Positions 13,708 to 61,103 are shown, counted from the stretch's first letter. The stretch is DNA of 64,000 nucleotides from Acidobacteriota bacterium (GCA_003223875.1 QHWY01000086.1:33233-97232); one strand, 5' to 3'. Numbers and translations are program-made. Notes: a model not told the origin generated them from the sequence alone.

Positions 13708-14039
13708 TCCCTCTCCCTCTGGGAGGTGTTGCAAAACGAGACGCAGTGCGAATTCAAACGACCAGACTACTCAGTCACCCAATGATTGATTTCGTCAGTG
13801 GGTAGTTGCGTCATCAGCGCTTTGCACAAAAAATACATCGTGGGCGCTCATAGAGCGCCCCTACAGTTGCGCACCCCAAGCTGTAGGGGCGGTCTATGAC
13901 CGCCCTGGATTTTTTGTGCAAAGCCCATCATCAGGTAATTTGACAACTGCATTTGACACCGCACATTGGACACTCGATATTTGACAATCCAAGCACCCAG
14001 CGTAAGCCAGTTTTGCAACACCCTCTTCTGGGAGAGGGA
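13708..14039. mobile_element. Composite inverted-repeat-bounded element containing a nested MITE-A and four TTGACA direct repeats
   Basis: Left end TCCCTCTCCCTCTGGGAGGTGTTGCAAAAC and right end GTTTTGCAACACCCTCTTCTGGGAGAGGGA are about 30-bp imperfect inverted repeats. The interior has MITE-A (13819..13925) and TTGACA-like repeats at 13939, 13953, 13967 and 13981. Confidence 0.4.
13819..13925 (-). repeat. MITE family A copy 1 (107-bp near-palindromic element GCTTTGCACAAAAAAT...ATTTTTTGTGCAAAGCC)
   Basis: Near-identical to the copies at 27463, 32855, 52388, 57782 and 60998, in reverse orientation. Flanked by catcag/catcatcag. Confidence 0.8.
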
Positions 14040-14051
14040 AAGCCGCTGCAG

Positions 14052-14756
14052 TCACGCCGGGCGCTCTGACATCGCGATAAGCGCTTGCCGGGCTTCGTCC
14101 ATATTCGAGATTGGAGTTGGGAAAAAGAATCGCTTTTTCTTGTTCGAATTCAGCACGTCGAATCCCTCGGAGTCGATTCCAACCATCACAACCGAAGAAT
14201 CCGCGTGCGCGTAATGCCGCAGTGCGGCCACGTGATCCTCGTTCATATGCTGGAGGATTCTCGCCTCCTGCGACGGAGAAAACGGATTTTCCGACAGGAA
14301 TTCATCCCGTTCGATCCAATAAATTTGGCCGAATCCGCCGATGAATCTCAGTCGGACCAACTCGAGGCGGAAAAACTCGAAGTCATGCGTTCCGGCATAC
14401 TGCCGCGACCCTGGAAAATACCTGAAGTAACGCTCGGGCGCATCGTCCTCGTCCGGACCGAGAAGGCGCGCGTTACCAATACAAGTCAGGCGTCCTCGCG
14501 CCTGCACGTCGTCGGAATCGCCTTTCTCCAAAACGGTCAAGGACACACGCGGGTCGGCAAGGATGTTCCTGGTATGTTGCGCGATCCGGCTAATGTAAAT
14601 GACGGGCCGGCACTGCCGATCGGCGCAGTATGGCGTCACCGAACCGAACGGGTATCCGGGCACGTCGAGCGAGATCGTTGAAAGCACCCCAAAACTCTGT
14701 TGCAAAAACAATCGTCGGGCTTCATTGTGTTCCTTCATTCTTCCGAGTATAGGCAA
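14052..14756 (-). CDS. Pyridoxamine 5'-phosphate oxidase-like / HugZ-like protein with DUF2470-like C-terminal domain
   Basis: N-terminal split-barrel FMN-binding-like pattern (GVLSTISLDVPGYPFGSVTPY...). C-terminal region resembles DUF2470 of HugZ-family heme-utilisation proteins. Confidence 0.55.
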   Translation of the reverse strand: MPILGRMKEHNEARRLFLQQSFGVLSTISLDVPGYPFGSVTPYCADRQCRPVIYISRIAQHTRNILADPRVSLTVLEKGDSDDVQARGRLTCIGNARLLGPDEDDAPERYFRYFPGSRQYAGTHDFEFFRLELVRLRFIGGFGQIYWIERDEFLSENPFSPSQEARILQHMNEDHVAALRHYAHADSSVVMVGIDSEGFDVLNSNKKKRFFFPTPISNMDEARQALIAMSERPA

Positions 14757-14773
14757 GGGGCAAGGAGAAAACT

Positions 14774-15289
14774 ATGACAAGGATCTTTGCAATCGTGTTG
14801 CTGCTTGCGCAGGCAAGCGCAACGAAAGTTCTTCCCGTGACCGATGTGAAGGCGTCCGATATTCAGGCCACGGTCAAAGAGGAAATCGCCAAAAAACTGA
14901 CCGATGTCCCGATTCGTACCGTGGACGCCGGCGGGCACAACATAAGCATCGCCGTTGTCCATCGCGATAATGGAACCAACCTGACGGGCATGGCCGCGCA
15001 TGACAAGGTATCCGAGGTCTACTACATTGTCGAAGGTTCTGGGACATTCGTCACAGGAGGCACGCTCGTCAAGCCGCAAAAGCGTGAAAGCTCCAGCGAC
15101 ACCGTAAAGCAGCTCAGCGGCCCCGGCTATGCCGGCACTGGAATTCAAGGTGGAACGAGCCGGCGCCTATCCAAAGGCGACATGGTCATCATTCCCGCCG
15201 GGACGCCCCACGGGTTTACCGACGTTCAGGAAGCGATCACCTATACCATTGTCCGGATCGACCCCAGCCGCCTTCTGGCGTTGAAGTGA
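14774..15289 (+). CDS. Secreted cupin domain protein
   Basis: Signal peptide, then cupin motifs (YYIVEGSGTF ... MVIIPAGTPHGF). Paralogous to 59061..59630. Confidence 0.6.
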   Translation: MTRIFAIVLLLAQASATKVLPVTDVKASDIQATVKEEIAKKLTDVPIRTVDAGGHNISIAVVHRDNGTNLTGMAAHDKVSEVYYIVEGSGTFVTGGTLVKPQKRESSSDTVKQLSGPGYAGTGIQGGTSRRLSKGDMVIIPAGTPHGFTDVQEAITYTIVRIDPSRLLALK

Positions 15290-15343
15290 GAAGACCAGTA
15301 TACTTCGGTCGAAATCGCAATTATCGCGACGAAGGAGGCGTTA

Positions 15344-16600
15344 ATGTCGAAGAAACTGTTTTTCCTATTGATGATCGCCGCAGTCCTGTCATTCGCCGGA
15401 CTCATGCTTGGCCAAGGTCAAGGGCGGGGCGGCCGGGACGATCAACTCAATTTGCCGGATGGACCGGGTAAAGACATCCTGCAGAGTGCCTGTACGGAGT
15501 GTCACAACCTCCAGATGGCCGTGGGCACCGGCTACAACCGCGAGGAGTGGGGACTCACACTCGAGCGTATGATCACGGCCGGCGCGAAAATGACACCGGA
15601 TCAGATTCCGGTCGTGACGGATTATCTGCTCAAGAACCTCGCAGGAGAAGGCCCGAAACCAGCCGTGATCGTGCCGGGCTCCGTGACGGTGTCTTTCAAA
15701 GAATGGGGGCTGCCGACAAAGGGATCGCGGCCGCACGATCCTTGGGCTGCGCCGGACGGGTCGATCTGGTACAGCGGTATGTATGCCAACGTGATCGGAC
15801 ATGTGGATCCGAAAACGGGACAGATCAAGGAATATCACCTCAAGACGCCACGTTCAGGGCCCCATGGTCTCGTTGGGGATAAAGAGGGCAACATCTGGTT
15901 CACCGCAAATTCCAAGAGCTATATCGGAAAACTTAACCCGAAGACCGGCGACGTTACCGAATACAAACTTCCTGAAGGCGCGCGCGACCCGCACACGCCG
16001 ATTTTCGATCAAAAGGGCACCTTGTTCTTCACCGTCCAGGGCGCGAACATGATCGGGCGGCTAGATCCAAAAACAGGAGACATCAAGATTGTCACATCGC
16101 CGACTCCGCGGTCGCTTCCCTACGGAATGGTCGTAAGCTCGAAAGGTGTACCGTTCCTCGTCGAATTCGGCGCGCCAAAAGTAGCGAGCATCGATCCGGC
16201 AACGCTGGCGATCAAAGAATACCCGCTGCCGCACGAAGAGTCGCGGCCGCGGCGCATCGCGATTACCAGTGACGACGTCATCTGGTACTCGGATTATTCG
16301 CGCGGTTACCTGGGGCGGCTGGATCCGAAAACGGGAAATGTGAAAGAGTGGCCATCGCCGAGCGGCCCGACGTCGCTGCCTTACGGCATCACGACATACA
16401 ACGACATCATCTGGTACAGCGAATCGGGAGTAAAGCCGAACACGCTAGTCCGGTTCGATCCTAAGACCGAGAAATTCCAGACCTGGACAATTCCGTCCGG
16501 TGGCGGTGTCGTTCGAAATATGATGGCGATGAAGGATGGGAACCTCGCGATCGCTGAAAGCGGTATCAATAAAGTCGCGTTGGCGGAAGTGAAGAAGTAG
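15344..16600 (+). CDS. Cytochrome c domain fused to Vgb-like (streptogramin-lyase-like) beta-propeller protein
   Basis: Signal peptide. A single CxxCH heme-binding motif (SACTECHNL) with downstream Met. Then about 7 repeats of the P(H/Y)G(L/M)xxDxxGNIWFT-type propeller motif. Confidence 0.65.
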   Translation: MSKKLFFLLMIAAVLSFAGLMLGQGQGRGGRDDQLNLPDGPGKDILQSACTECHNLQMAVGTGYNREEWGLTLERMITAGAKMTPDQIPVVTDYLLKNLAGEGPKPAVIVPGSVTVSFKEWGLPTKGSRPHDPWAAPDGSIWYSGMYANVIGHVDPKTGQIKEYHLKTPRSGPHGLVGDKEGNIWFTANSKSYIGKLNPKTGDVTEYKLPEGARDPHTPIFDQKGTLFFTVQGANMIGRLDPKTGDIKIVTSPTPRSLPYGMVVSSKGVPFLVEFGAPKVASIDPATLAIKEYPLPHEESRPRRIAITSDDVIWYSDYSRGYLGRLDPKTGNVKEWPSPSGPTSLPYGITTYNDIIWYSESGVKPNTLVRFDPKTEKFQTWTIPSGGGVVRNMMAMKDGNLAIAESGINKVALAEVKK

Positions 16601-16681: not shown

Positions 16682-17401
16682 TTATTGGCGGGAATCCTGA
16701 CAGATGTATTCGAACATCTCGCCGCCGGAAATCCAAGATGACGGCGTTTTCTCCGTGATCGTCCAAGCCCCGGACCAGGGTTTGGTGTACGCGCCCGGAT
16801 CATCAATCGTAAATTCATAGGAAAGCGTTTTGAGATTAGGACGCGAAATCCGTTCGATGAGGTGCAACTGTTCAGTCGTCGGATAAGATCCCGCTACCCA
16901 CTGTTTTTCGTTGAAGCCCACGGAGTCGATTACCAGCGTATCGCCTTCCCAATGCCCGATCGAGTGCCCTAAAAACGTCGGCCTCAAATCATCGCCCGTC
17001 GGATGCGGGCGGCCATCCATATAAATTACGCGCCAGGCGTGCGGGCCGGCAATGTTGAGGATAAAAACGCTCTTGAGCTCCGGCGCTTCGACAATCTCAA
17101 AGCCTGGAGCGTTGAAGAAGGATGGTCCTGTCGCGGGCTTGCAACCGACGAGCGGGGGATAGAGATCCGTGCGCGAAGTTCGGTATTGATAGAGCGCCCT
17201 CGCCCAGGGCTGGAACGGCACATCGGCAGCACGGGGCGTACCGCCCAGGCCCGGCCGCACTTCCCAATAGCCTTTCTTGTCCGGCGTTGATCCCAGGTTG
17301 ACGTGTCCGTCCGGCCAACGCGGCGCAGGCTCGAGAGGCGCTTGAGCGAAGCCATACGTCATCATCACGGAAAAAACTACAAGCCCCGGAATGATCCTCA
17401 T
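16682..17401 (-). CDS. Secreted hypothetical protein (B-domain family, PRWPDG...KKGYW motif)
   Basis: Signal peptide. Shares PRWPDG...GKKGYW...PFQPWA..LY(E/Q)YR motifs with the C-terminal half of the 17820..18941 protein. Confidence 0.6.
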   Translation of the reverse strand: MRIIPGLVVFSVMMTYGFAQAPLEPAPRWPDGHVNLGSTPDKKGYWEVRPGLGGTPRAADVPFQPWARALYQYRTSRTDLYPPLVGCKPATGPSFFNAPGFEIVEAPELKSVFILNIAGPHAWRVIYMDGRPHPTGDDLRPTFLGHSIGHWEGDTLVIDSVGFNEKQWVAGSYPTTEQLHLIERISRPNLKTLSYEFTIDDPGAYTKPWSGAWTITEKTPSSWISGGEMFEYICQDSRQ

Positions 17402-17819: not shown

Positions 17820-18941
17820 CTAACGCACGAATGTCGATTCTGCATTGTCTTCGCAAAAGTATTCCTGAATTTCCTGATCCGGAACCCACTGGATCGTCCA
17901 GCCTCCAGTCCATGTGCGTGTATAGGTTCGCGGATCATCTACCGTCACTTCGTATTTCAATGTGTTCAAATCCGTTCGCGTGAAGCGCTCGATGAGATGA
18001 AGCGCCTCGGTATGAGGCAGGCCGCCCGGCCCGAGCCAAAACTTTTCGTTGAACCCGACGGAGTCGACGACGAGCGTATCTTTTTCCCAATGACCGACAG
18101 AACTTCCGTAATAGCTCGGTACCTGTTCCGCCGACTGGCCGACCGGCCGGCCGTCGGTATAAATAATCCGCCAATTGCGATCGCCGCCCCCCAACAAGAT
18201 CAGAATGCGTCCGAGGTCTCTTTGCTCGATGAATTGAAATCCATTGGGCACGAGGAACTGGCGCGGTCCACCCGGCGGCAGGCACCGCGCCAGAGGATCG
18301 TCTTTGAGAAGGTTGCGCTGGCGATATTCGTATAGCGCTTTGGCCCAGGGTTGGAAGGGAGCGACTTTGTCCGCATCCGCGATGTTGAGCAACAGGCCAT
18401 CCTCGGTCATCGCGATCTTAGTTGCAGAGTTCTCCACCAATACTTTCGTGCTCGCGGTTCCCCAATATCCCTTTTTCCCCGGAGGCGGACCCGGACGAAT
18501 TTGACCATCCGGCCACCGCGGCGCAGGCGGTGCGGGCGCGGTCGCGCGCGCTATTGCGCTCAGGTTGAACAAGCGCTTGCCGGTCCGCGTTAACACAACA
18601 GACTTCGCGAAGACCTGTCTTGTCGTACCTCGTGCCGGCGTACCTTCGACAGTAACGGCGTCACCGATGTGCAGCGCACTTCGTTTCCCGCCGCTTCTCT
18701 CGAGATCGAGCGGATTGCCGAATTGTATGGCCCAGTTCGTGACGATTCCTGATGCATCTTTCGTATCGATAAACAGAAATGCGTTCGGATTGACCCAATC
18801 GATCCTCGTCACAATTCCCTGCAGTTTGACTTGCCGGTTGCTGTCGTAAGTCGTGGAAAAATTGCGCTGCGAAAGAAGAAATGGAGCGGTGCATAGAATC
18901 GCGAGGACAACGGCCGGCAGGATGCTTCTGATCGTCTTCAC
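17820..18941 (-). CDS. Secreted hypothetical protein, fusion of A-domain (OB-fold-like) and B-domain
   Basis: The N-terminal part VKLQGIVTRIDWVNPNAFLFIDTKDASG aligns with the 17416 and 19456 proteins. The C-terminal part aligns with the 16682 protein. Start assigned to GTG 18941 with a GAGGGA RBS and signal peptide; the longest ORF extends to 19082. Confidence 0.55.
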   Translation of the reverse strand: MKTIRSILPAVVLAILCTAPFLLSQRNFSTTYDSNRQVKLQGIVTRIDWVNPNAFLFIDTKDASGIVTNWAIQFGNPLDLERSGGKRSALHIGDAVTVEGTPARGTTRQVFAKSVVLTRTGKRLFNLSAIARATAPAPPAPRWPDGQIRPGPPPGKKGYWGTASTKVLVENSATKIAMTEDGLLLNIADADKVAPFQPWAKALYEYRQRNLLKDDPLARCLPPGGPRQFLVPNGFQFIEQRDLGRILILLGGGDRNWRIIYTDGRPVGQSAEQVPSYYGSSVGHWEKDTLVVDSVGFNEKFWLGPGGLPHTEALHLIERFTRTDLNTLKYEVTVDDPRTYTRTWTGGWTIQWVPDQEIQEYFCEDNAESTFVR

Positions 18942-20648: not shown

Positions 20649-20656
20649 TGGCGATC

Positions 20657-20935
20657 GTGATCAAGAGCTTCACGCACAAAGGCCTGAAGCAGTTCTTCCA
20701 GAAAAGTCAGGCGAAAGGGCTCTCCGCCGAAATGCGTCCCCGCGTCCGGCGGGTCTTGGATGCCTTGGATGCCGCCCAGTCACCGGACGAGTTAAATATT
20801 CCCGGCTTCGGGCTCCATCCGCTGAAAGGCGATCGGAAAGGCACGTGGGCCGTCCGGATCACCGGCAACTGGCGCATCACCTTCCGATTCGAGAAGACCG
20901 ACGTGACCGACGTCGATCTGGAGGACTATCACTAA
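20657..20935 (+). CDS. higB: HigB-type toxin (RelE/ParE superfamily, plasmid maintenance system killer family)
   Basis: MIKSFTHKGLKQFF...GNWRITFRFE...DYH matches the HigB_toxin family layout. 92 aa, immediately upstream of the HigA-like gene. Confidence 0.8.
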   Translation: MIKSFTHKGLKQFFQKSQAKGLSAEMRPRVRRVLDALDAAQSPDELNIPGFGLHPLKGDRKGTWAVRITGNWRITFRFEKTDVTDVDLEDYH

Positions 20936-20948
20936 AGGAGCAAGACGT

Positions 20949-21281
20949 ATGGATCAACGCGACATCGATCGGATCTTGAATGGCCGCCAGCGTCGGCCGA
21001 CCCATCCCGGCGAACTGCTGCGGGAAGAAGTACTGCCGGCCGCGAAACTCACGCAGCTCGAGCTGGCGCGGCACTTGGGCGTCTCGCGCAAAACCGTCAG
21101 TGAGATCGTGCTCGGCCAACGGCAGGTGACCGTCGATATGGCGGTGCGTCTGGGCCGATTCTTCGGCAATGGTCCCGGCCTCTGGCTGCGGATGCAGGAG
21201 GCGGTCGATTTATGGGACGCGATCGCGCGGCATCGCAAAGCCTACACCGCCATCAAACCCTTGAAAGTGAACGTGGCCTAG
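20949..21281 (+). CDS. higA: HigA-type antitoxin (XRE-family HTH)
   Basis: HPGELLREEVL...LTQLELARHLGVSRKTVSEIV is the typical HigA HTH. 110 aa. Confidence 0.8.
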   Translation: MDQRDIDRILNGRQRRPTHPGELLREEVLPAAKLTQLELARHLGVSRKTVSEIVLGQRQVTVDMAVRLGRFFGNGPGLWLRMQEAVDLWDAIARHRKAYTAIKPLKVNVA

Positions 21282-25142: not shown

Positions 25143-25159
25143 GATAATATACGCAGCGA

Positions 25160-25330: not shown

Positions 25331-25331
25331 C

Positions 25332-50289: not shown

Positions 50290-50361
50290 AAATCTGTAGC
50301 GGCGGTTTCTTTTAAGGCTGCGCGCTATCGCGCTTGCGCTTCGCGGACCGCCAATCTTCCT

Positions 50362-50390
50362 CCGGGGCGGTCATAGACCGCCCCTACAAT
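50362..50390. repeat. Fragment of MITE family A core
   Basis: GGGGCGGTCATAGACCGCCCCTACA matches the A-element core, with no flanking arms. Confidence 0.4.
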
Positions 50391-50969: not shown

Positions 50970-51469
50970 AATTTCCGAACGGCCTCTATGATCTCATCGG
51001 CGATCGTTTCGGGTGTCCCATTGTCGGTTGAGACATGCAGTTTCGCCAGCGCGTAATGCGGTTCCCGGCTTTGATATAGCCCTTCCGCCTGTTCTTTGCT
51101 GGTCAACTTCGGCCGTGTACCATCAATTTTCACACGATCGCCGACCTTGGCGAAAGACACTTTAAGCCAAACCGTCAAACCTGTGGTCTCCGCAAGCGCG
51201 CGGTTTTCCGGATCGAGAAACGCTCCACCCCCCAGCGCTATAACCGATTGTTTTAACGAGGAAACTTGCTTCAGTGAGTGGTGTTCGTGCTGCCTGAAAC
51301 GGGCTTCTCCGTTTTCGCGAAAAATATCAGCTACCGTACGCCGCGCCCGCCGCTCGATTTCCTCATCAAGGTCGATGAATTTCCATCCGAGCTTTTTCGC
51401 CAGGCGCCGCCCGACCGTGGTTTTTCCCGAGCCCATGAAGCCAACCAGATAAATGCGACTAACGGACAT
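50966..51469 (-). CDS. aroK: Shikimate kinase
   Basis: IYLVGFMGSGKTTVGRRLA P-loop. 167 aa. Confidence 0.9.
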   Translation of the reverse strand: MSVSRIYLVGFMGSGKTTVGRRLAKKLGWKFIDLDEEIERRARRTVADIFRENGEARFRQHEHHSLKQVSSLKQSVIALGGGAFLDPENRALAETTGLTVWLKVSFAKVGDRVKIDGTRPKLTSKEQAEGLYQSREPHYALAKLHVSTDNGTPETIADEIIEAVRKL

Positions 51470-52298
51470 TGTTGACGCTGACAGCCCCCTTGATATCTTC
51501 GACAGTAACCCTTCCCTTGCGATTCTCGATTCTTACGTCTCCTATGATGCCGCGGATGTCCACCGGACCGTAACGATTCGAGACCTGCTGGTTTCCTTCC
51601 AGGCCCTGAATACTGACCTTGCCATTGCGATTGTCGATTCGAATCGACGAGCGTTTCGGCACGTGCAGCTTTAACGAACTCTTAAATCGCTGCCTCGGAA
51701 TGTCTCGAAAGTCTACCGCATCGCGGTTCGAGACGATTCGGTATCCGGTGCGGCCCGGCTCGATTGAAAATGTGAAATCCTTCGAAAGATGCTCGGCTTC
51801 TTCTTTATTCGATGCACGAACGGTCTTCTTCACGTCCAGAACCACGCGATCGGAATCGGAAGCCCGTATCTCGACGTTGCCGGATCGATTGACAATTTCG
51901 ATGTTCGAATCCAAAGGAACCACGGCCTCCCGATGTTCGTCGAAGCTGAAATTATTGCCAGTGATGTCCCACAAATCGATTTCATCGATATCGAACATAT
52001 TCCCAAGATCGGAACTGATGTTTGCTGCCGTAGTCAACGCGCTTCCCCCAAAAACAACGAACAGGAGTACGGCTATTTCTGAGCGCGAAAATAACGCGCG
52101 GCTACCGTCTGCGTGTCGAAGCCGGCGATAATCGACAATTTTTAATGCTCCCCAACCGATGAGAAGGACGGGCCAGCCGCGTACGACATATCCCCAGATC
52201 GGAAGACCATGTCCCAGACCTTGTACCAGAAGCAGCATCCCAACGGCTGTCAAGGTTACGGCCCAATATATGGCTCCGGCGCCTGGATGGACCCTCAT
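51459..52298 (-). CDS. Membrane-anchored protein with DUF4097-like beta-strand repeats (putative adhesin/envelope-stress family)
   Basis: 2 N-terminal TM helices. Repeated G(N/D)V(E/D)IR...G.V.V motifs (VDIRGIIGDVRIENRKGRVTVEDIKGAVSV). Confidence 0.5.
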   Translation of the reverse strand: MRVHPGAGAIYWAVTLTAVGMLLLVQGLGHGLPIWGYVVRGWPVLLIGWGALKIVDYRRLRHADGSRALFSRSEIAVLLFVVFGGSALTTAANISSDLGNMFDIDEIDLWDITGNNFSFDEHREAVVPLDSNIEIVNRSGNVEIRASDSDRVVLDVKKTVRASNKEEAEHLSKDFTFSIEPGRTGYRIVSNRDAVDFRDIPRQRFKSSLKLHVPKRSSIRIDNRNGKVSIQGLEGNQQVSNRYGPVDIRGIIGDVRIENRKGRVTVEDIKGAVSVNNVR

Positions 52299-52323
52299 TT
52301 TGCGCTACCCAAGGAGGAAATTC

Positions 52324-52510
52324 GGGGTCAGACGGGTGAATTCCCTATTTTGGAACTGCAAAAATAGGGAATTCACCCGTCTGACCGGCTTTGCACAAAA
52401 AATACATCGTGGGCGCTCATAGAGCGCCCCTACAGTTTGCGCACCCCAAGCTGTATGGGCGGTCTATGACCGCCCAGGATTTTTTGTGCAAAGCCCGTCT
52501 GACCCCGAAT
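52324..52510. repeat. 28-bp perfect palindrome (GGGGTCAGACGGGTGAATTCCCTATTTT...AAAATAGGGAATTCACCCGTCTGACCCC) interrupted in its 3' arm by MITE-A
   Basis: Left arm 52324..52351, loop 52352..52359, right arm 52360..52386. The right arm resumes at 52496..52506 after the MITE. Confidence 0.6.
52388..52495 (-). repeat. MITE family A copy 4
   Basis: Full-length element with TSD cgtctgacc (52378..52386 and 52496..52504). Confidence 0.8.
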
Positions 52511-52555
52511 AAAAGTTTCAATTTATAGTGACCTTTCTGAGATAATCGCCCAGTT

Positions 52556-53530
52556 ATGAACCGGAAGTTATTGTTATTATTGATCTTGTCAGCAATTATA
52601 GCAGTTGCATTGTACCGTCTTATAGGACGGGATTTCGATTGGTCCTTGTTTATTACCAGTTTATGGAACGTTCAACCCGGTTGGCTGATGGCTTCCATTG
52701 CAGCGACGTTGCTGACATACGTTGTTCGCGCCTTTCGATGGAAAGTCTTGCTGAACCCTTTGAAATCCATCCGCGTGGGACCATTGATCAGCACAAACGT
52801 TTTGGGATTCTCCGCCATATACCTGATCGGACGAGCGGGAGAAGTCGTGCGGCCGCTCTGGCTCACGCGATGCGAACAGATTCCACTCACGGCATCGGTT
52901 GCGACCATCATCGTCGAGCGTTTCCTCGATACGCTGATGATCATCGCGCTGTTTGGATGGGCATTATTGGTGGTCAAGCTCCCTGCGGCGGCCGGGCACA
53001 CGGTAATGCTTATGAAAAACACCGCCTGGGTGATGGTCGCTGGATCCGTTGCCGCGATGCTTTTCTTGTTTTTCTTTCGAGCAAATGTGGAACGCATTGT
53101 CCGATACGTTCCCATCGCGCGGCTCGCCTCATTATTGAAAAGTTTCTCGGAAGGTTTGTCGTTTCTTGATCGCGGGCGCAGTTTCGGATTAGTCATCGCC
53201 CATTCCATTCTCGTCTGGATCGTCATCGTCCTGCAGTTTTGGTTCATGCTGCTTGGAATGAATTTTCGTCTTTCGATTTCAGCCGCAACTTTGGTCATGG
53301 TTGGAGCAGCCATCGGCTCTGTCGCGCAAGTCCCGGGCATCGGCGGAGGTTTTCAGGCCGGATATGTTTTCTGCATGACCACATTCTTCATTGTTCCCGC
53401 GGAGCAAGCAATCGCGACCTCGCTGGTCGCGTGGGTTTCCTGCTATGTTCCGACCGTTCTAGCGGGCGGACTCTACATGGTCTCTCAGGGTCTGTCGTTG
53501 AAAGATCTCCGAACAGTACCAGTAGAATAA
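52556..53530 (+). CDS. Flippase-like domain protein (lysylphosphatidylglycerol synthase TM-region family, UPF0104)
   Basis: N-terminal pattern [14 protein letters not shown]...[32 protein letters not shown] is characteristic. 8 TM helices. Confidence 0.65.
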
Positions 53531-53534
53531 AATA

Positions 53535-53993
53535 ATGAAATGTCCGTTCTGCGGTCATCTTCAGGATAAGGTGGTCGATTCGCGCGAAAGCAAGGAAGGC
53601 GACGCGATTCGCCGCCGCCGGCAATGCCTGGCGTGCCAGCGGCGTTTCACGAGCTACGAGCGCATCGACGAAATACCGTATATGGTAGTGAAGAAGGACG
53701 GACGACGCGAACGGTTCGACAGACAGAAGGTTTTGGCGGGTTTGCTGAAAGCCTGTGAGAAGCGCCCGGTCTCGATGGTCCAACTCGAAACGATTGCGGA
53801 CAAAGCTGAAGCGGTGGTTCAAGAATCGAGCGAACGCGAGATCACCACGCGGACCGTCGGCGAGATGATCATGAATGAACTCAAGAATCTCGATAAAGTG
53901 GCCTACGTTCGATTCGCATCAGTCTACTTGGACTTCAAAGATGTCCAGGAATTCATGACGGAGCTGAAAGATCTCCTGAAAAGCCGGGAATAG
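53535..53993 (+). CDS. nrdR: Transcriptional repressor NrdR
   Basis: [46 protein letters not shown] zinc-ribbon plus ATP-cone. 152 aa. Confidence 0.95.
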
Positions 53994-53999
53994 TTTCTC

Positions 54000-54362
54000 A
54001 TGTACTTCGAATTCGTTGCACAAGCGCGGGAAGGCGCAACCTGGAGCCCGACCGTCGACGTCTGCGAGCGGACCAGCGAAATCGTGATTGTCGTCGAAAT
54101 GCCCGGAGTGCATCGCGCCGATATCCAGTTGTCCTGGAACGACGGAATCCTAGTCATTTCGGGAGTGAAGCGCCAAACGCCCCCCGACTACGGTGTCGCG
54201 AAATACCTGTGCGTCGAACGCACATATGGGCACTTCCGTCGCGAAATTTCCGTCAACTTGCCAGTCGATTACAAGGAGGCAAAAGCAGAACTAAAAGACG
54301 GACTCATGAAAATCCACCTTCCCAAGTCTAAGCCAGAGGTAGTGAATATCCCGATCCTGTGA
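54000..54362 (+). CDS. Hsp20/alpha-crystallin family small heat-shock protein
   Basis: WSPTVDVCERTSEIVIVVEMPGV alpha-crystallin domain. 120 aa. Confidence 0.9.
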   Translation: MYFEFVAQAREGATWSPTVDVCERTSEIVIVVEMPGVHRADIQLSWNDGILVISGVKRQTPPDYGVAKYLCVERTYGHFRREISVNLPVDYKEAKAELKDGLMKIHLPKSKPEVVNIPIL

Positions 54363-54388
54363 AATTCGGGGGATTAGGCATATAGATT

Positions 54389-56824
54389 ATGAGCATGGAG
54401 CTGGTTAAAGCGGATCAAGGCCCTGAACAGCAACAAGTTAGTATCCCGGATGTTCTCCCGGTGTTGCCGCTTACCGACATCGTCGTCTTTCCTTACATGA
54501 TCGTGCCGTTATTTGTGAACCGCGAGCGCTCCACGAAAGCTGTAGATCAAGCTCTGTCGGAAAACCGGATGATCCTATTGGTATCGCAGAAAAACGCGAA
54601 TGTGGACGATCCGAAGGCAGAAGATTTGCACGACTTCGGGACCGTTTCCGTGATCATGCGCATGCTGAAGCTGCCAGACGGCCGTGTGCGAATCCTGGTT
54701 CAAGGCTTTTCACGCGCAAAAGTGGAATATTTCGACGATTCGAAGCCGTACATCACGGCTAAAGTCGAGCCGAAGACAGAGCCCCAAGTGGTTCCGAATT
54801 CGCCCGAATTCGAAGCACTCATACGGAACGTGAAGTCATCTCTCGAAAAAATGGTCTCTCTCGGTAAGAACATTTCTCCAGATCTCGTGGCTATCGCAAC
54901 GAATATCGACGATCCAGCCCGGCTGTCGGATCTGGTCGCTTCCAATCTCGATCTCAAAATCGATAAAGCGCAGGAGGTCCTCGAGCTGATGGATCCTGTG
55001 GCGCGACTGCGCCGCGTTCATGAATTGATGGCGAAAGAAATCGGAGTGCTCGAAATTCAGAACGACATCAACACTCAAGCTCGTGGCGAGATGGATAAAA
55101 GCCAGCGCGAGTTCTATCTTCGCCAGCAGATGAAAGCGATCCAACAGGAATTGGGTGAAGGAAACGAACTTCAGGAAGATATCGAGCAGTACCGAACCAA
55201 AATCAAAAAAGCCAAAATGCCGACCGAGGTGACCGAAGAAGCCGAGCGGCAGCTTGGACGGCTAGAGCGCATGCATCCGGATGCGGCGGAAACCGCCACA
55301 CTGCGCAATTATCTCGACTGGATGGTTTCGCTGCCTTGGTCGAAATCGACGAAAGACAATCTCGATCTGAAAAAGGCCCAGAAGATCCTCGACGAAGATC
55401 ATTACGGGCTCGAGAAAATCAAGGAGCGCATTGTCGAGCACCTCGCCGTACGCAAGCTGAAGAAAGACACGAAGGGCCCAATTCTCTGCTTTGTCGGCCC
55501 GCCTGGCGTCGGTAAAACCTCTCTCGGAAAATCCATCGCCCGAGCTTTGGGCCGCAAATTTGTTCGAATGAGTCTGGGCGGCGTTCACGACGAGGCGGAA
55601 ATCCGCGGACATCGTCGCACATACGTTGGCGCGATGCCGGGGCGGATCATCCAAAGCATTCATCAGGCAAGCACCAACAATCCAGTCTTCATGATGGACG
55701 AGGTCGATAAAATCGGTGCGGATTTTCGCGGCGATCCTTCATCGGCATTACTCGAAGTTCTCGACCCGGAGCAAAATTTCGCCTTCAGAGATAACTATCT
55801 CGGCGTGCCGTTCGACCTTTCAAACGTGATGTTCATTACGACAGCCAACATGCTGGATCCAATTCAGCCGGCGTTTCGCGATCGGATGGAGATCATCTAC
55901 CTCAGCGGCTACACGGAAGAGGAAAAAATCGAAATCGCCAAGCGACACCTGATTCCGAAACAAACCGCAGAGCATGGTCTAAAGAAAGATCAGATCCAAT
56001 TTAGCGACGAAGGACTGCGGGCCATCATCAATCTGTACACGCAGGAAGCGGGGTTACGGAATTTGGAGCGCGAAATCGCTGCCGTGTGCCGCAAGGTTGC
56101 CAAACAGGTTGCGATCGGGGAGAAGAAGAACCGAAAAATTCATACCGACAATTTGGATCAATTCCTTGGACGTCCGAAGATTTTTCAGGAAGAGCTGCTG
56201 AAACGTGATCAAGTTGGAGTCGCAACAGGCCTGGCCTGGACACCTGTCGGTGGGGATGTGCTATTTGTCGAAGCGACCGCAATGAAAGGTCGCGGGACTC
56301 TCACGCTTACAGGGCAACTCGGTGATGTCATGAAGGAATCGGCGCAAGCGGCGCTCAGTTACGCCCGCTCGCATACGAAAGAGTTCGGAATCAGCGACGA
56401 CTTCTTTTCGAAGCATGACATTCACGTGCACGTGCCCGAAGGGGCGATTCCCAAAGACGGGCCATCAGCGGGCGTCACGATGGCAACGGCCATCCTGTCG
56501 CTGCTGACCCAGAAAGCCGTCCATCGAAAAATCGCCATGACGGGCGAAATTACGTTGCGCGGCGAAGTGCTTCCCGTGGGCGGCATCAAAGAGAAAGTGC
56601 TGGCGGCGCGCCGCGCCAAAATCGACACAGTTATTCTGCCGTCATTGAACAAACGCGATCTCGAAGATATAAATGAGACGATCCGCAAGGAGATGAAATT
56701 CATCTTTGTCGATGACGTCAAGAGCGTCTTCAAAGCAGCCCTGCTCGAAAACAAGAAGCCTCTGAAAACCGCCGCGCGACGAAGCCCGCGCCGTCTGCCG
56801 AAGGGCGCTGAGGCCACGGTGTGA
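54389..56824 (+). CDS. lon: ATP-dependent Lon protease
   Basis: LON N-domain. Walker A GPPGVGKTSLGKSIA. Catalytic PKDGPSAGVTMATAILSLL (Ser) and K in the C-terminal domain. 811 aa. Confidence 0.97.
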   Translation: MSMELVKADQGPEQQQVSIPDVLPVLPLTDIVVFPYMIVPLFVNRERSTKAVDQALSENRMILLVSQKNANVDDPKAEDLHDFGTVSVIMRMLKLPDGRVRILVQGFSRAKVEYFDDSKPYITAKVEPKTEPQVVPNSPEFEALIRNVKSSLEKMVSLGKNISPDLVAIATNIDDPARLSDLVASNLDLKIDKAQEVLELMDPVARLRRVHELMAKEIGVLEIQNDINTQARGEMDKSQREFYLRQQMKAIQQELGEGNELQEDIEQYRTKIKKAKMPTEVTEEAERQLGRLERMHPDAAETATLRNYLDWMVSLPWSKSTKDNLDLKKAQKILDEDHYGLEKIKERIVEHLAVRKLKKDTKGPILCFVGPPGVGKTSLGKSIARALGRKFVRMSLGGVHDEAEIRGHRRTYVGAMPGRIIQSIHQASTNNPVFMMDEVDKIGADFRGDPSSALLEVLDPEQNFAFRDNYLGVPFDLSNVMFITTANMLDPIQPAFRDRMEIIYLSGYTEEEKIEIAKRHLIPKQTAEHGLKKDQIQFSDEGLRAIINLYTQEAGLRNLEREIAAVCRKVAKQVAIGEKKNRKIHTDNLDQFLGRPKIFQEELLKRDQVGVATGLAWTPVGGDVLFVEATAMKGRGTLTLTGQLGDVMKESAQAALSYARSHTKEFGISDDFFSKHDIHVHVPEGAIPKDGPSAGVTMATAILSLLTQKAVHRKIAMTGEITLRGEVLPVGGIKEKVLAARRAKIDTVILPSLNKRDLEDINETIRKEMKFIFVDDVKSVFKAALLENKKPLKTAARRSPRRLPKGAEATV

Positions 56825-57744
56825 AGCTCGAGGATCTCGGTGAAGGCGGCTTCATCCGAAAAATCCGCGAACGATTCAAAGCGGCGGTGGTTGTTCCAAT
56901 TGGTGACGACGCCGCCGTTTTTGATATTCCTTCCGGTCATTCTCTCGTGTTCTGCTCCGACCTGCTCGCCGAGAACAGTCATTTCATTCGTAATCTGCAT
57001 CCGCCGGATTCGATTGGCTACAAATCCGTCGCGGTCAATGTCAGCGATGTGGGCGCAATGGGAGGCACGCCGCTTCATTTCCTGATCTCATTTGCTGCGC
57101 CGGGCGATCTCGATGTCGCCTGGGTTGATTCTTTTTTCGACGGTGTCGCGAAAGCATGCGCGGACTTCGACATTTCCCTCATTGGCGGCGACTCGTCCTC
57201 CTCCGACCGGATCTTCCTTGATGTTTCGATGATTGGCACTGTTCCCTCGGGCAAAGCAGTTCGCCGCTCCGGCGCAAAGTCAGGGGATTCAATCTATGTT
57301 ACCGGACAACTCGGCGGTTCAGCTCTGGGCCTCGAATGCTTGAAATCCAGGGATCTGAAAAATCGGGCGGTTCGAAGGCATCTCTATCCCGAACCGCGTC
57401 ACAAAGTTGGTGCGGCGCTTCGGGAGCGAGTGCACGCGATGATCGATATCAGCGACGGACTTTCCACGGATCTCACCCATATCGTGGAGGAATCGAAGGT
57501 CTCCGCTCGCATCTACAAAGATCGGCTTCCGGGATGGCCTGATGCCGCGTCCAATCACATCCTGCATGGAGGGGAAGAATATGAATTGATCGCCGTCTCT
57601 TCGCAGGATCTCGCAGAGGTGGTGATGAATGTGCCTCTAAGACGGATCGGAGAAATCATCGACTCCGGATTCGAAAACCAAGTCTTCCTCATCGATGGCC
57701 CTCAGGAATCCGTCTTGAGTCCTCTCGGCTGGCAACATTTCTGA
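56821..57744 (+). CDS. thiL: Thiamine-monophosphate kinase
   Basis: GTG start overlapping the lon stop. AIRS-like fold motifs (IGDDAAVF, VAVNVSDVGAMGG, IGGDSS). 307 aa. Confidence 0.8.
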   Translation: MKLEDLGEGGFIRKIRERFKAAVVVPIGDDAAVFDIPSGHSLVFCSDLLAENSHFIRNLHPPDSIGYKSVAVNVSDVGAMGGTPLHFLISFAAPGDLDVAWVDSFFDGVAKACADFDISLIGGDSSSSDRIFLDVSMIGTVPSGKAVRRSGAKSGDSIYVTGQLGGSALGLECLKSRDLKNRAVRRHLYPEPRHKVGAALRERVHAMIDISDGLSTDLTHIVEESKVSARIYKDRLPGWPDAASNHILHGGEEYELIAVSSQDLAEVVMNVPLRRIGEIIDSGFENQVFLIDGPQESVLSPLGWQHF

Positions 57745-57752
57745 AAACAGAT

Positions 57753-57779
57753 TACCCTCTCCCTCTCTAGGAGAGGGTA
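57753..57779 (+). terminator. Stem-loop after thiL (TACCCTCTCC-ctctcta-GGAGAGGGTA)
   Basis: 10-bp stem with 7-nt loop, 9 bp after the thiL stop. Its 3' arm is duplicated as the TSD of the adjacent MITE-A. Confidence 0.4.
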
Positions 57780-57781
57780 GG

Positions 57782-57888
57782 GCTTTGCACAAAAAATCCT
57801 GGGCGGTCATAGACCGCCCCTACAGCTTGGGGTGCGCAACTGTAGGGGCGCTCTATGAGCGCCCACGATGTATTTTTTGTGCAAAGCC
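57782..57888 (+). repeat. MITE family A copy 5
   Basis: Full-length element with TSD gagagggtagg (57771..57781 and 57889..57899). Confidence 0.8.
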
Positions 57889-57915
57889 GAGAGGGTAGGG
57901 TGAGGGTCTCAAGAT

Positions 57916-58281
57916 TTGACAGGCTTGCGACCCTCACCCGGCGCGTCAGACTTGCGTCTGTCGAGCCGCCGCGAGAGTCAGCGGATCTACGAAGGACGCG
58001 CGCCTGGAAATGGCGCAACATTAGTCATTGCGGGAGATGTGATGTTCTGGGGAGATCTGAATCAGAAGTTCCGCGCTTTCGATGCAGATACAGTAAAGAT
58101 CCTCTGGGAAGCGACTCTCGGCGGACCGATTCAAAACAGCACGATCAGGTATCGCGTGAACGGGAAGCAATATGTTGCCGTGGTGACCGGCTTGGGATCG
58201 ATCACCGCAAATCTCTTCACCCAAGCCGGAATCAGTCCACAACGCAACAAGGCGATTCACGCATTCGCGTTGCCGAATTAG
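57916..58281 (+). pseudogene. 3' fragment of a PQQ-dependent dehydrogenase gene (last about 90 aa only)
   Basis: GATLVIAGDVMFWGDLNQKFRAFDADTVKILWEATLGGPIQNSTIRYRVNGKQYVAVVTGLG matches the C-terminal blade of quinoprotein dehydrogenases (compare 10862..12715). No N-terminal 500 aa, signal peptide or RBS. A MITE-A lies immediately upstream. Confidence 0.5.
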
Positions 58282-59037
58282 CTATTTTGGCTGCGGCGGA
58301 GGGTACGCCTTATTGGCCAGGCTGACAGGATTCACATCGCCGCGATGGCACGTCCAGCAGGTGACCTTCTGCTCGCCGACCGGAAAAACGCCTGTGCCGG
58401 GAAATTGCGCATTGATCTGCCGCACCAGCATGATCATCTTCCGCGCAATATCTTTTCGTGGGTTAAGATCGTACTCCTGAGGCTTTCCACCGCCATGGCA
58501 GTAGTTGCAGTCCACGCTCAGCGCGTCACGGAACTCGCCCATCAGAGAATCTGCGCCGTGGACGTGTGTTTCCACGGGCAGCAACTTTAAGCTGGTTCCT
58601 GGAACCTGAGCCGGCGGTGGATTGCCTAACGAGTTACCACGATTGTAGAACTTCTTCGGCGCCATGATCTCCGGTTTTACGTTTCCGCGATGGCATGTCG
58701 AGCAATCGACTTCATGATAGCCATCAGGGAAAACCCCGGCGCTGCTTGGGAAGGTGGTGTCGATCAGCCGGACCATCGAGATCATCTTGCGCGCCATTTC
58801 TTTCTCGGGTTTCATGTCGGCCGCAAAATCGCCCTGCACGTGGCAATGCGTGCACTGCACACCAAGAGCCTCATTGAAGCCCTGCATCACGAACCGGATG
58901 TCGGTTTTCGGATCCAGCAGTTTCAGATTCTTCGGTGGTGGCAATGGAGCCCCTCCGCGCTGGCCGCCGCCGCCCCGTTCCTGAGCGAAGGTCGAAACGG
59001 GCAGCAGGAGAAACAGAATGATGATGAGTAGTTGCAT
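58282..59037 (-). CDS. Tetraheme c-type cytochrome
   Basis: Signal peptide and four CxxCH motifs (CTHCH, CSTCH, CNYCH, CWTCH). 251 aa. Confidence 0.8.
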   Translation of the reverse strand: MQLLIIILFLLLPVSTFAQERGGGGQRGGAPLPPPKNLKLLDPKTDIRFVMQGFNEALGVQCTHCHVQGDFAADMKPEKEMARKMISMVRLIDTTFPSSAGVFPDGYHEVDCSTCHRGNVKPEIMAPKKFYNRGNSLGNPPPAQVPGTSLKLLPVETHVHGADSLMGEFRDALSVDCNYCHGGGKPQEYDLNPRKDIARKMIMLVRQINAQFPGTGVFPVGEQKVTCWTCHRGDVNPVSLANKAYPPPQPK

Positions 59038-59060
59038 CGGTCCCCCTTGTGTCCTTTTGT

Positions 59061-59630
59061 TTACTTCAAATTGAGCGCTTTGTCAGGATCGATCACGACC
59101 CGGACAATGTCGGTCTTTTCCGTCACTTCATATCCCGGCAGATGTGGAACACCGACGGGAATAATCATGATGTCACCGGCTACATACTTCTGGGCGGTGT
59201 AGCCTTTGATCTTGCCACTAACGCTCGGTCCACGAACGGTCTTTACGGACTCGCTCGCGGGATCGTCCTTCGTCGGGTTCTCTAGTTCGCCTCCAATCAA
59301 GAACGTTCCCGTACCGCGGATGACGTAATAGAGTTCGGTAATATCGTTGTGAGCCCATCCCCCTAGGTTCGTATTGGCCGGCCTCGGATCGAAATGCAGG
59401 AGATAGGCGCCAAGGTTGTAGCTTTTCGCGATATCGACTACGCGCGCGGGATGGTCTCCGTTTGTTTTCATCAGCGCTTCGAGATCGGCGTGCGGGATAA
59501 AGGTAAGCTTTCCCCCGGCGGCTTTGCTTTTGTCCGCCTGAAGTTGGCCCTTGTTCTGAGCTTCGGCCGAAGATAGGGTAATGGCGACGATCAATACGAG
59601 AACGACGAATGTCCAAGAACGAATTCTCAT
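59061..59630 (-). CDS. Secreted cupin domain protein (paralogue of 14774..15289)
   Basis: Start at the ATG with an AAGGAG RBS (signal peptide MRIRSWTFVVLVLIVAITLSSAEA). Cupin motifs YYVIRGTGTF and IMIIPVGVPHLPG. The longest ORF extends to about 59687. Confidence 0.6.
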   Translation of the reverse strand: MRIRSWTFVVLVLIVAITLSSAEAQNKGQLQADKSKAAGGKLTFIPHADLEALMKTNGDHPARVVDIAKSYNLGAYLLHFDPRPANTNLGGWAHNDITELYYVIRGTGTFLIGGELENPTKDDPASESVKTVRGPSVSGKIKGYTAQKYVAGDIMIIPVGVPHLPGYEVTEKTDIVRVVIDPDKALNLK

Positions 59631-60102
59631 CTTCAATCTCCTTCGACAGGTGGGTATACCATGAACCGCCTTGGCCTTTGATGTCAAGCAAAGGGATTAG
59701 CCATTTTTAAGGGGCAGCGCCCGTTATCCAATGTCGCAGAACACACCTGATGTCAAGCCGCCAGCGGCCACAAGCCGGCGAAATCAGCGACAAGCCCGGG
59801 GCGCAGCTATCCCTTCCGTTTTGGAAGCGATGGCGGAAAATCCGCCGCCATCTCCGTTAAGGATGCTGGAAGAGTGCAAGGTTCTCTACGATAAGAGACT
59901 CGTCAAAGACTTTCGGGTAGTGCCAAAAGTTCTATGAAAACAAGGTGAAGGGTCTTTGCGCCCCATGGACGGTTTGGCGCATGCCATGGATGGCAGACTG
60001 CGGTCAAGCTGGTTACAGCTTGTGACAGGATACTTGCATTCGCGCATGGCCTGCTCTCGCCGGACGCAAAGCGGATGTTTTGAATGCAGGAATTCTGAAA
60101 CT

Positions 60103-60522
60103 CTACTTGAGTTTGAGCGATGGCAGAAATGGCGATTCAGGCCGGGGCGAAACTGTCCGCTTGATAGGATCCACGATCAGATCCAGCCGTTCGAGAACGA
60201 GTTGCCCTATTAATGGTTCGCATCGAGGAGGGCCCACGAGGCAATCGGTATCCATTTGTCGATCCTTTAACGTAAGAGACAGGAGCCGGGCTCGGGGGAG
60301 TTCAATCTTCTGTTCATTCGCAAGCGTGACAATGATCCTACCGTCGCGTGGCAGCCCCAATATGTCGACAACATCTTCGGGAAGAAGCGTCATGACGGCT
60401 CCTGTATCTACAAGGCTATCAAGCTCGACGCGCCGGACACGCGAACTATCCATGTGTCCAGCTTCCGCCAGGATGCGATCAGTTTGGTTTTCCAGGATAA
60501 TTGTGGCGCGAACTTCACCCAT
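60103..60522 (-). CDS. Retropepsin-like aspartic protease (clan AA, TIGR02281-like)
   Basis: DSLVDTGAVMTLLP contains the D-T-G-A active-site motif. Start placed at the ATG with an AGGGAG RBS, giving 140 aa; the longest ORF reaches 60690. Confidence 0.55.
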   Translation of the reverse strand: MGEVRATIILENQTDRILAEAGHMDSSRVRRVELDSLVDTGAVMTLLPEDVVDILGLPRDGRIIVTLANEQKIELPRARLLSLTLKDRQMDTDCLVGPPRCEPLIGQLVLERLDLIVDPIKRTVSPRPESPFLPSLKLK

Positions 60523-60651
60523 AACGTTCTCCCTTAGATGGCATTGTACTCCAGCAGATCGGACCGCACGGTGCCGTCGCATGGCGGTCCCAAGAACCTT
60601 TGCGCTCATCGTCAAAGCGCCAAGGTCACCTGCATCTTCAATCGATGTCAA

Positions 60652-60952
60652 TGTCAATAAGCCCGTTAAGGTGACCGGAAAGGTCACCAAACTCGATCTG
60701 GTGAACCCGCACTCATGGATTTATGTGGACGTAACCGAACCCGACGGAAAGGTCACCAACTAGCGCTTCTAGCTCGGCGCCCCGAACGCTCTCTTTCGGC
60801 TTGGATGGAAAAAAGATACAGTCCCGTCGGGGCTCGAAGTCGTTGTGACCGGCTTTCAGGCCAAATCCGGCGGACCTGTGGCTAATGGGCGCTCCGTCAT
60901 CCTGCCCGGCGGCAAAACACTGGAGAGCGGTGGCTCGAATCCTGAGAAATAA
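60652..60952 (+). pseudogene. Frameshifted copy of the OB-fold-like A-domain gene family
   Basis: NVNKPVKVTGKVTKLDLVNPHSWIYVDVTEPDGKVTN ends at a stop at 60763. The homology (FRLGWKKDTVPSGLEVVVTGFQAKSG...) continues in the +1 frame to 60952. No signal peptide remains. Confidence 0.45.
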
Positions 60953-60965
60953 CACAAGGCGCACA

Positions 60966-60998
60966 CCCCAATTCACGAATTAGATTCGTGAATTGGGG
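60966..60998 (+). terminator. Perfect 15-bp stem-loop CCCCAATTCACGAAT-tag-ATTCGTGAATTGGGG
   Basis: Immediately downstream of the pseudogene stop. Its 3' arm is duplicated as the TSD of the adjacent MITE-A. Confidence 0.35.
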
Positions 60999-61103
60999 CT
61001 TTGCACAAAAAATCCTGGGCGGTCATAGACCGCCCCTACAGCTTGGGGCGCGCAACTGTAGGGGCGCTCTATGAGCGCCCACGATGTATTTTTGTGCAAA
61101 GCC
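60998..61103 (+). repeat. MITE family A copy 6
   Basis: Full-length element with TSD gtgaattggg (60988..60997 and 61104..61113). Confidence 0.8.

Follow-up and report, generated by a model that had tools for sequence, protein, structure and literature searches.

A short near-palindromic repeat family, probably a recently mobile transposable element with a REP-like core, in a soil Acidobacterium

The stretch of DNA analysed here, referred to as the window, comprises 64,000 nucleotides from an Acidobacteriota bacterium (GCA_003223875.1, QHWY01000086.1:33233-97232). It contains six dispersed copies of a near-palindromic repeat, designated family A, which is very probably a non-autonomous, recently mobile miniature inverted-repeat transposable element (MITE) of an uncultured soil Acidobacterium. 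The element is called a MITE because it is small, has no open reading frame (ORF) of transposase length, is bounded by 17-bp terminal inverted repeats, is accompanied by target-site duplications of fixed length, and occurs in many nearly identical copies. A transposase-inserted and recently mobile MITE had already been proposed from inspection of the window's sequence alone (the sequence-only reading), and the proposal is borne out by duplications at every copy, by a soil-metagenome contig in which one site is empty (L003), and by a syntenic relative that is without copies 4 and 5 (L119). The coordinates of the copies, their duplications and their surroundings are collected in Table 1; contigs and loci retrieved from databases are identified by L numbers.

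A 46-nt consensus probe, for which up to three mismatches were allowed and zero or one observed, matched the window at exactly six places on both strands, with none expected by chance (100 shuffles). In an alignment of seven sequences (the six window copies and one from contig L009) the columns are on average 97% identical, and no copy has more than two changes relative to the consensus, with which copy 5 is identical. The previously reported number of copies, their presence on both strands and their identity of more than 90% are thereby upheld, as is their placement, except that some ends were off by 0-1 nt where a G is common to the element and its flank; the exact limits were now fixed by locating the terminal repeat on both strands. 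The length of the element is 107-109 bp, typically 108 bp, which is too short for any transposase ORF, and the ORFs listed over copies 2, 5 and 6 only begin in the element or cross it. The terminal inverted repeat, GGCTTTGCACAAAAAAT, is 17 bp long, inverted at both ends, and perfect at 11 of the 14 ends of the seven copies; the remaining three ends have a single substitution or deletion each. The whole element folds into one long hairpin, as had been predicted, both as single-stranded DNA (-46 kcal/mol, z = -10.9) and as RNA of either strand (approximately -73 kcal/mol, z approximately -10). The G+C content of the window averages 52-58%, with no compositional break at the copies. A CRISPR array or a tandem array was ruled out, the copies being dispersed 3-25 kb apart on both strands. 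No family was found for the element when the window was scanned at the Rfam gathering thresholds (the sole match was a cobalamin riboswitch), no match to the MITE was found among plasmids by blastn, and a literal search of the literature (8 million papers) for the string of the terminal repeat returned only an unrelated coronavirus paper. One copy per approximately 10 kb is indeed a high density, but not beyond that of known dense families such as the Correia elements.

Direct repeats flank all six copies of the window, with a length of 9 bp at five of them (one with a match of 8/9) and 10 bp at copy 5. Repeats of 9-11 bp had been recognised at five copies by the sequence-only reading; the repeats are real, but they are present at all six copies, and the earlier readings of 10 and 11 bp (three copies) were too long because they took in a G that is the element's own first base.

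The mobility of family A can be assessed by comparison with closely related DNA from soil. Contigs from soil metagenomes match two segments of the window (47241-61103 and 11805-33968) at 98.5-100% identity, and proteins of the window are identical to PYS02656.1 and PYS02672.1 ('MAG: Acidobacteria bacterium', MAG denoting a metagenome-assembled genome), with further exact matches in soil metagenomes. One soil-metagenome contig, L003, is 100% identical to positions 52494-59707 of the window, which are the 7.2-kb right flank of copy 4, and also includes the true left flank of the insertion. At the site of copy 4, where the window has CGTCTGACC, the element, and CGTCTGACC again, L003 has no element and a single CGTCTGACC, and reads CACCCGTCTGACC followed directly by CCGAATAAAAG. 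The sequence common to the local hairpin arms and the copy-4 junction amounts to only approximately 14 nt, so that, by our own reasoning, a de Bruijn assembler with k of at least 21 could not have skipped the element. Judging from these sequences, the insertion is recent and still polymorphic in the natural population. The loop of the hairpin at the copy-4 site is itself inverted between the window (52324-52386, TTTTGGAACTGCAAAAA) and L003 (28-89, TTTTTGCAGTTCAAAA), which is due to a genuine flip of the hairpin or to ambiguous assembly within a perfect palindrome.

A more distant comparison is provided by L119 (GCA_003223855.1), which is syntenic with positions 47457-57745 of the window at 82-86% nucleotide identity and has no copy of the element in 12.3 kb, the sites of copies 4 and 5 included; at the former site its intergenic DNA measures 99 bp, and after its ThiL-like gene the next gene begins 7 nt on. 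Empty sites, a search for which the sequence-only reading had suggested as a check, thus exist for copy 4 in L003 and for copies 4 and 5 in L119, and the refuting conditions named in that reading were decided in favour of mobility. Within the window, copy 2 interrupts a 74-bp repeat within its first 7 nt; the paralogue of this repeat (39752-39825) is uninterrupted, and removal of copy 2 with one duplication restores the 74-bp repeat. The three close strains sampled, at 98.5-99.7% identity to the window, all carry copies 1-3; together with the absence of copy 4 from L003, this indicates that the species has most insertions in common and that at least one continues to segregate.

Three other contigs behave irregularly at copies of the MITE: L001 tracks the window to the last base of copy 6 (61103) and then (L001 13864 onward) carries a histidinol dehydrogenase gene that is absent from that place in the window, and L002 and L005 each end inside a copy. 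This pattern may mean that the MITE breaks or chimerises short-read assemblies, or it may mark a rearrangement. The contig with the seventh copy, L009 (VBON01000195.1, 3.4 kb), is assigned to the 'Nitrospirae bacterium NS_11' MAG of the same soil project and is suspected to be mis-binned, as it contains a family-A copy with 98% identity and, in addition, the REP-like doublet that the acidobacterial window also has.

Family A has features that could matter to its host. In a consensus scan, the three best terminator-like matches between 44500 and 64000 were inside copies 4, 5 and 6 and consisted of GGGCGGTCTATGACCGCCC then AGGATTTTTT. The intrinsic-terminator-like module (GGGCGGTCTATGACCGCCC-AGGAUUUUUU) is present in one orientation of the element, and its run of T residues complements the A run found in the terminal repeat. 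It faces the end of the neighbouring gene in copies 1, 3, 5 and 6 and away from it in copy 2, and copy 4 is located between divergent genes; this pattern of orientation fits the survival of non-polar insertions, but six cases prove nothing. If transcribed, the element could alter the termination or stability of neighbouring transcripts by forming the RNA hairpin of approximately -73 kcal/mol predicted for either strand. The same features could be explained by a structural or regulatory module selected by the host, such as a terminator or an mRNA-stabilising hairpin, that was spread by recombination or ancient expansion and is no longer mobile: all copies are intergenic, they contain the best terminator-like matches, and the canonical module is oriented as a terminator of the neighbouring gene in four of the six, the opposite orientation being that of copy 2 inside an operon. 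Such an explanation is most unlikely to suffice, in view of the presence/absence polymorphism at a site where the right flank is 100% identical, the absence of the element from the syntenic relative, the 97% identity among copies, which argues for a recent burst, and the target duplications, which recombination does not yield. A host module is therefore contradicted as the sole explanation, and individual copies of a mobile element may have been co-opted.

The core of the MITE consists of two units, CTGTAGGGGCGGTCTATGACCGCCC (minus strand) and CTGTAGGGGCGCTCTATGAGCGCCC, arranged head to head around a 14-nt spacer, each unit having a GTAG head and then an 8-bp GC stem with a 3-nt loop (unit motif GTAGGGGCGGTCTATGACCGCCC). 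A GTAG head with a short GC-rich palindrome is the architecture of repetitive extragenic palindromic (REP) sequences. A degenerate pattern of the unit matched 14 sites in the window, where none is expected by chance; 12 of these are inside the six MITEs and two are in stand-alone doublets, in which the units are tail to tail. The doublet beginning at 50290 adjoins a 192-aa gene without a Pfam hit, and its fold (50288-50392) has z = -3.3. Its second unit has the same sequence as the MITE's left inner hairpin and had been taken for a core fragment of family A (50362-50390); the sequence match is real, but the fragment is one unit of a doublet that has no terminal repeats, and it is not regarded as a broken MITE because such REP-like units also occur alone. 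MITEs of Planctomycetes with the same ends as family A contain different GTAG-plus-palindrome units (GTAGGGTGGGC..GCCCACC). The core of family A can be read as host REP-like DNA captured between two transposon ends.

It could alternatively be supposed that family A is a REPIN, i.e. a REP doublet spread by a RAYT (HUH/Y1) transposase, and that the outer inverted repeats are merely part of the hairpin. This would account for the inverted pair of GTAG-plus-GC-palindrome units, for the three places at which such units stand alone without outer repeats (Table 1), and for the different units in the Planctomycete MITEs. The supposition is nonetheless extremely improbable, because precise terminal repeats and a target duplication of 9-10 bp accompany each copy and L003 shows an exact empty site, whereas HUH single-strand transposition leaves no such duplication. 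The same terminal repeats also bound non-REP cores in Pyrinomonadaceae, which indicates that what is functionally shared is the ends and not the core, and no Y1 transposase occurs in the precomputed Pfam hits to genes called at positions 11805-33968 and 47241-61103 of the window. A REPIN/RAYT origin for the element as a whole was rejected on account of the duplications and terminal repeats.

As a MITE, family A would depend on a DDE transposase encoded elsewhere, which would bind both terminal repeats and insert the element at a 9-bp staggered cut, the repair of which would leave the 9-bp direct repeat. On balance, and with some reserve, an IS5-family, IS903-group transposase acting in trans is put forward as the source enzyme because of the GGC ends, the 9-bp duplication, the similarity of the terminal repeats and the precedent of MITEAba12. 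GGC termini and 9-bp duplications are the ISfinder hallmarks of the IS903 group within the IS5 family, to which ISAba12 is also presumed to belong in ISfinder. The end of IS102 (pSC101; 1,057 bp), GGCTTTGTTGAATAAATCG, shares 14 of 19 positions with the MITE end GGCTTTGCACAAAAAATCC, the first seven included. The insertion sequence (IS) ISAba12 has the end GGCTTTGTTGCACAAA, generates duplications of 9 bp, and has been proposed to drive the 113-bp MITEAba12 (PMC6382973). The MITE end matches that of ISAba12 at 13 of 13 positions only if a 3-nt gap is allowed, and that of L118 at 12 of 17 without a gap.

The IS903 group has many members (854 clusters at 50% identity with scores below 1e-30), and its ends were sampled from the environment. 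A profile search with 25 diverse representatives retrieved contigs of approximately 1 kb, of which those sampled end with GGCGTTGTTGCATAAAT or GGCTTTGTTGCATAAAT; over metagenomes and viral contigs together, the ends sampled were GGCGTTGTTGCATAAAT, GGCTTTGTTGCATAAAT, GGCGTTGGTGCATAAAT, GGCTCTGTTGCACAAATCG or GGCTTTGTTGCGCAAAGG, with the consensus GGC(T/G)(T/C)TG(T/G)TGC(A/G/C)(T/C/G)AAA. Perfect 9-bp duplications flank the IS903-group elements L113, L116, L117, L120, L125, L126, L127 and L183. The MITE end has both GGCnnTG, the outer motif of the group, and CAnAAA, the inner one, and appears similar to, not within, the sampled variation of IS903-group ends.

A different DDE family with GG..TG ends, such as IS1595 (ISPna2 group, GGCnnTG), IS1 (GGnnnTG), IS256/Mutator-like elements or ISKra4/ISLre2, is a less likely but serious candidate for moving the MITE. 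The first seven bases of the repeat, GGCTTTG, fit both the GGCnnTG and the GGnnnTG end rules of ISfinder; the scans found no IS903-group element with the exact MITE end; the sampled IS903-group ends are all three bases longer than the MITE repeat; and in some loci of Dehalococcoidia and Pyrinomonadaceae the 17-mer is followed by further inverted copies, which is not an IS903-like architecture. To be set against this are the length of the duplication, with 11 of the 12 insertions best preserved across families showing 9 bp, whereas IS1595 makes 8 bp; the likeness to the IS903 group, which extends past the first seven bases in both IS102 and ISAba12 (the latter with the gap mentioned above); and the nearest precedent, a 113-bp MITE with a 9-bp duplication, which belongs to ISAba12.

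Several results weigh against the view that family A is a MITE mobilised by an IS903-group enzyme and active upon its host. In every sampled IS903-group end there is a TTG or GTG triplet between GGCnnTG and C(A/G/C)nAAA or AATAAA (CACAAA in ISAba12), and the MITE is without it, for which reason the assignment to the IS903 group is probable only. The duplication at copy 5 is 10 bp, not 9 bp, and the case for effects on termination or on RNA consists of the consensus scan and six orientations. No transposase adjoins the 17-mer in any of the at least 89 genome loci listed. Scans of metagenomes for the repeat, a gap and the motif NW..YN (conserved in at least 80% of 91 IS903-group representatives plus IS102) gave no matches and then seven chance matches, to an unrelated low-complexity gene; in viral contigs, one scan for the repeat and NW..YN gave no matches and another scan gave five, presumed to be due to chance.

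The full-length IS with the same terminal repeats that had been envisaged as the source was thus sought at the 17-mer loci and in the metagenome and viral scans and not found. Other approaches gave similar results. By tblastn, 14 diverse IS903-group transposases had no match in the window or in any MITE-bearing locus; pairs of the 17-mer spaced 1.2-3 kb apart (in L010, L012, L018, L037, L050, L052, L055 and L058) enclose ordinary genes and no transposase; none of 80 IS903-group loci in viral contigs has the end of the MITE; the peptides that the repeat could encode (GFAQK and others) are absent from all retrieved transposases; and the matches from an IS102 protein search and from tblastn against plasmids were dominated by enterobacterial IS903B. 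These searches for a parent covered the matches listed for exact patterns in genomes, metagenomes and viral contigs, not the source genome as a whole, so the absence of a parent is not established.

The ends of family A are also found outside the Acidobacteriota. The exact 17-mer has at least 89 matches in GTDB genomes, most of which are attributable to chance (approximately 70 expected in 596 Gb by our own arithmetic), and approximately 20 of the matches listed are short elements bounded by the inverted repeat (Table 1), with cores unrelated to family A and to each other. Duplications of 9 bp are perfect at L025, L032, L049, L060 and L075, and L059 matches over the 6 bp available before the end of its contig. 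Since unrelated cores have the same ends and the same 9-bp duplication, the terminal repeat and the 9-bp stagger are the conserved and presumably functional part, as mobilisation in trans by related transposases would predict. Other loci contain mini-hairpins of approximately 45 bp in which the 17-mer is followed by 13 nt and its own inverted copy (ATTTTTTGTGCA), namely L043, L044, L050, L053 and L076 in Dehalococcoidia and L030 in Pyrinomonadaceae. L030 has three more copies of the motif within 140 nt, and L043 and L076 share approximately 130 nt after it. The mini-hairpins may represent one end of a bigger transposon or else an operator, and were not counted as MITEs.

Taken together, these loci allow a broader but rather speculative proposal, which we consider unlikely: a superfamily of MITEs in Acidobacteriota, Planctomycetota and Chloroflexota would be defined only by GGCTTTGCACAAAAAAT and the 9-bp duplication, would be served by an undescribed transposase, IS903-like or other, that is rare in or missing from the genomes that carry the MITEs, and would have picked up REP-like host doublets independently in at least two phyla. 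If this were true, family A would be a hybrid element recognised, in principle, by two unrelated systems, a DDE enzyme at its ends and a RAYT at its core.

In design, the closest described relative of family A is MITEAba12, and family A is unusual in its REP-like core, in a terminal repeat that recurs across phyla and in a parent that was not found; in itself, it is genuine but belongs to an ordinary class of bacterial mobile elements. According to PMC6382973, MITEAba12 resembles family A in being non-coding and short (113 bp versus 108 bp) with a 9-bp duplication, in having, like ISAba12, terminal repeats of 16-17 bp that start with GGCTTTG and contain CACAAA, and in that it is identical to candidate parent ISs only in the terminal repeats. 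The ISAba12 repeat given there is GGCTTTGTTGCACAAA, whereas family A is without the TTG triplet and continues with AAAAT. Family A, with six copies in 64 kb, is far denser than MITEAba12, with 90 copies over approximately 31 genomes (PMC6382973). Unlike MITEAba12, which has an Acinetobacter host, family A has an Acidobacteriota soil host, a REP-like core and no co-resident parent IS identified.

IS903 and IS102 share GGC termini and a 9-bp duplication with family A (in IS102, 14 of 19 terminal bases are identical). IS903 differs in its length of 1,057 bp and in encoding a transposase that has the domains PF13737 and PF01609, whereas family A encodes nothing and has no relative of that transposase near it. 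The Correia elements (Correia repeat enclosed elements, CREE) of Neisseria are dense, near-palindromic elements of approximately 100-150 bp with terminal inverted repeats, situated between genes, that can act on transcription and RNA processing and for which we know of no autonomous partner. In contrast to family A, they duplicate TA rather than 9 bp, have unrelated terminal repeats of 26 nucleotides, and are confined to Neisseria. REP sequences and REPINs resemble the core of family A in the GTAG head with a short GC-rich palindrome, in inverted doublets that form hairpins, and in the occurrence of stand-alone doublets past the ends of genes; REPINs differ in having no DDE-type terminal repeats or target duplications, and no RAYT was seen here.

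The surroundings of the copies are summarised in Table 1. All six window copies are intergenic. The 3′ arm of a pre-existing hairpin was hit by three of the seven copies (4, 5 and 6) and another repeat by one (copy 2); seven sites cannot separate a target preference from the survival of harmless insertions. The cobalamin riboswitch, the TonB-dependent receptor gene and the Peripla_BP_2 gene look like a B12-uptake operon, with copy 2 between its two genes.

Table 1. Coordinates of family-A copies, REP-like doublets, neighbouring features of the window, and elements elsewhere that are bounded by the 17-mer
Feature	Position or loci	Strand	Description	Flanking duplication	Site
MITE copy 1	13818-13925	-	108 bp; terminal C -> G at 13818	13809-13817 CGTCATCAG / 13926-13934 CATCATCAG; 8/9 match	between convergent genes 12881-13699 (+) and 14052-14687 (-)
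MITE copy 2	27463-27570	+	108 bp	27454-27462 and 27571-27579; TCGCCAAAC; 9 bp	23 nt past TonB-dependent receptor gene, before Peripla_BP_2 gene, downstream of cobalamin riboswitch
MITE copy 3	32854-32961	+	108 bp	32845-32853 and 32962-32970; GAGTTGATG; 9 bp	~100 nt downstream of STAS-domain gene, ~25 nt from decayed REP-like doublet
MITE copy 4	52387-52495	-	109 bp, 1-nt insertion	52378-52386 and 52496-52504; CGTCTGACC; 9 bp	3′ arm of hairpin with 28-bp stem, between divergent genes
MITE copy 5	57781-57888	+	108 bp, identical to consensus	57771-57780 and 57889-57898; GAGAGGGTAG; 10 bp	3′ arm of hairpin TACCCTCTC...GAGAGGGTA, downstream of AIRS-domain (ThiL-like) gene
MITE copy 6	60997-61103	+	107 bp, 1-nt deletion in T run	60988-60996 and 61104-61112; GTGAATTGG; 9 bp	3′ arm of hairpin CCCAATTCACGAAT...ATTCGTGAATTGGG, 25 nt beyond stop of minus-strand ORF 61128-62669
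Seventh copy	L009 107-214		98%-identical family-A copy	CTCCCTCTG on both sides; 9 bp	
Stand-alone REP-like doublet	50290-50390		CTGTAGCGGCGGT, 39-nt insert, GACCGCC, spacer, GGGCGGTCATAGACCGCCCCTACA; without terminal repeats		
Decayed stand-alone REP-like doublet	32768-32828		GTAACGGCGCTCTGTGTGCGCC ... GACGGTCATAGAAGC		just past STAS gene stop
Intact stand-alone doublet	L009 2984-3040		RNA fold z = -9.2		just after HSP20 gene
Cobalamin riboswitch	25137-25318	+	RF00174, 81 bits		
TonB-dependent receptor gene	25329-27440				follows riboswitch
Peripla_BP_2 gene	27647-28474				follows riboswitch
17-mer-bounded elements	L025, L032, L034, L045, L049, L070, L092		Pyrinomonadaceae and Blastocatellia MAGs		
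17-mer-bounded elements	L059, L060, L063, L078, L080		Planctomycetota		
17-mer-bounded elements	L065, L075		Dehalococcoidia		

Other repeats and genes of the window were noted in passing. A second repeat family of approximately 160 bp (5328-5488 and 39671-39826, with partial copies at 27573-27646, 47142-47190 and 49399-49447) has palindromic ends, ATTCCCCTCCTCGCAGAGGAGGGG ... CCCCTCCTCTGCGAGGAGGGGAAT, and appears to be a further MITE-like element; one of its partial copies has received copy 2 of family A. A 68-nt direct repeat with 71% identity (17263-17330 and 18461-18528), in a region of neighbouring DUF6152-family genes (called in L101/L103), probably reflects paralogous genes rather than a mobile repeat. 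A pair of genes for a HigB-like toxin and an HTH_3 antitoxin is located at approximately 20650-21280 (L103 8849-9473), upstream of an S9 peptidase gene.

Family A is thus, in all likelihood, an active and dense MITE in an uncultured soil Acidobacterium, of which occupied and empty alleles have both been caught in natural populations. It can serve to mark strains and attests to continuing genome change in a phylum that has been little studied, and it would explain why metagenome contigs such as L001, L002 and L005 break or turn chimeric at its copies. With copy 2 in a B12-uptake operon controlled by a riboswitch, and with several copies replacing or splitting native terminator hairpins, effects on gene expression are plausible. 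The 17-bp end common to three phyla and the REP-like passengers make this a tractable case for the study of how the cores of MITEs are assembled and which transposase serves them.

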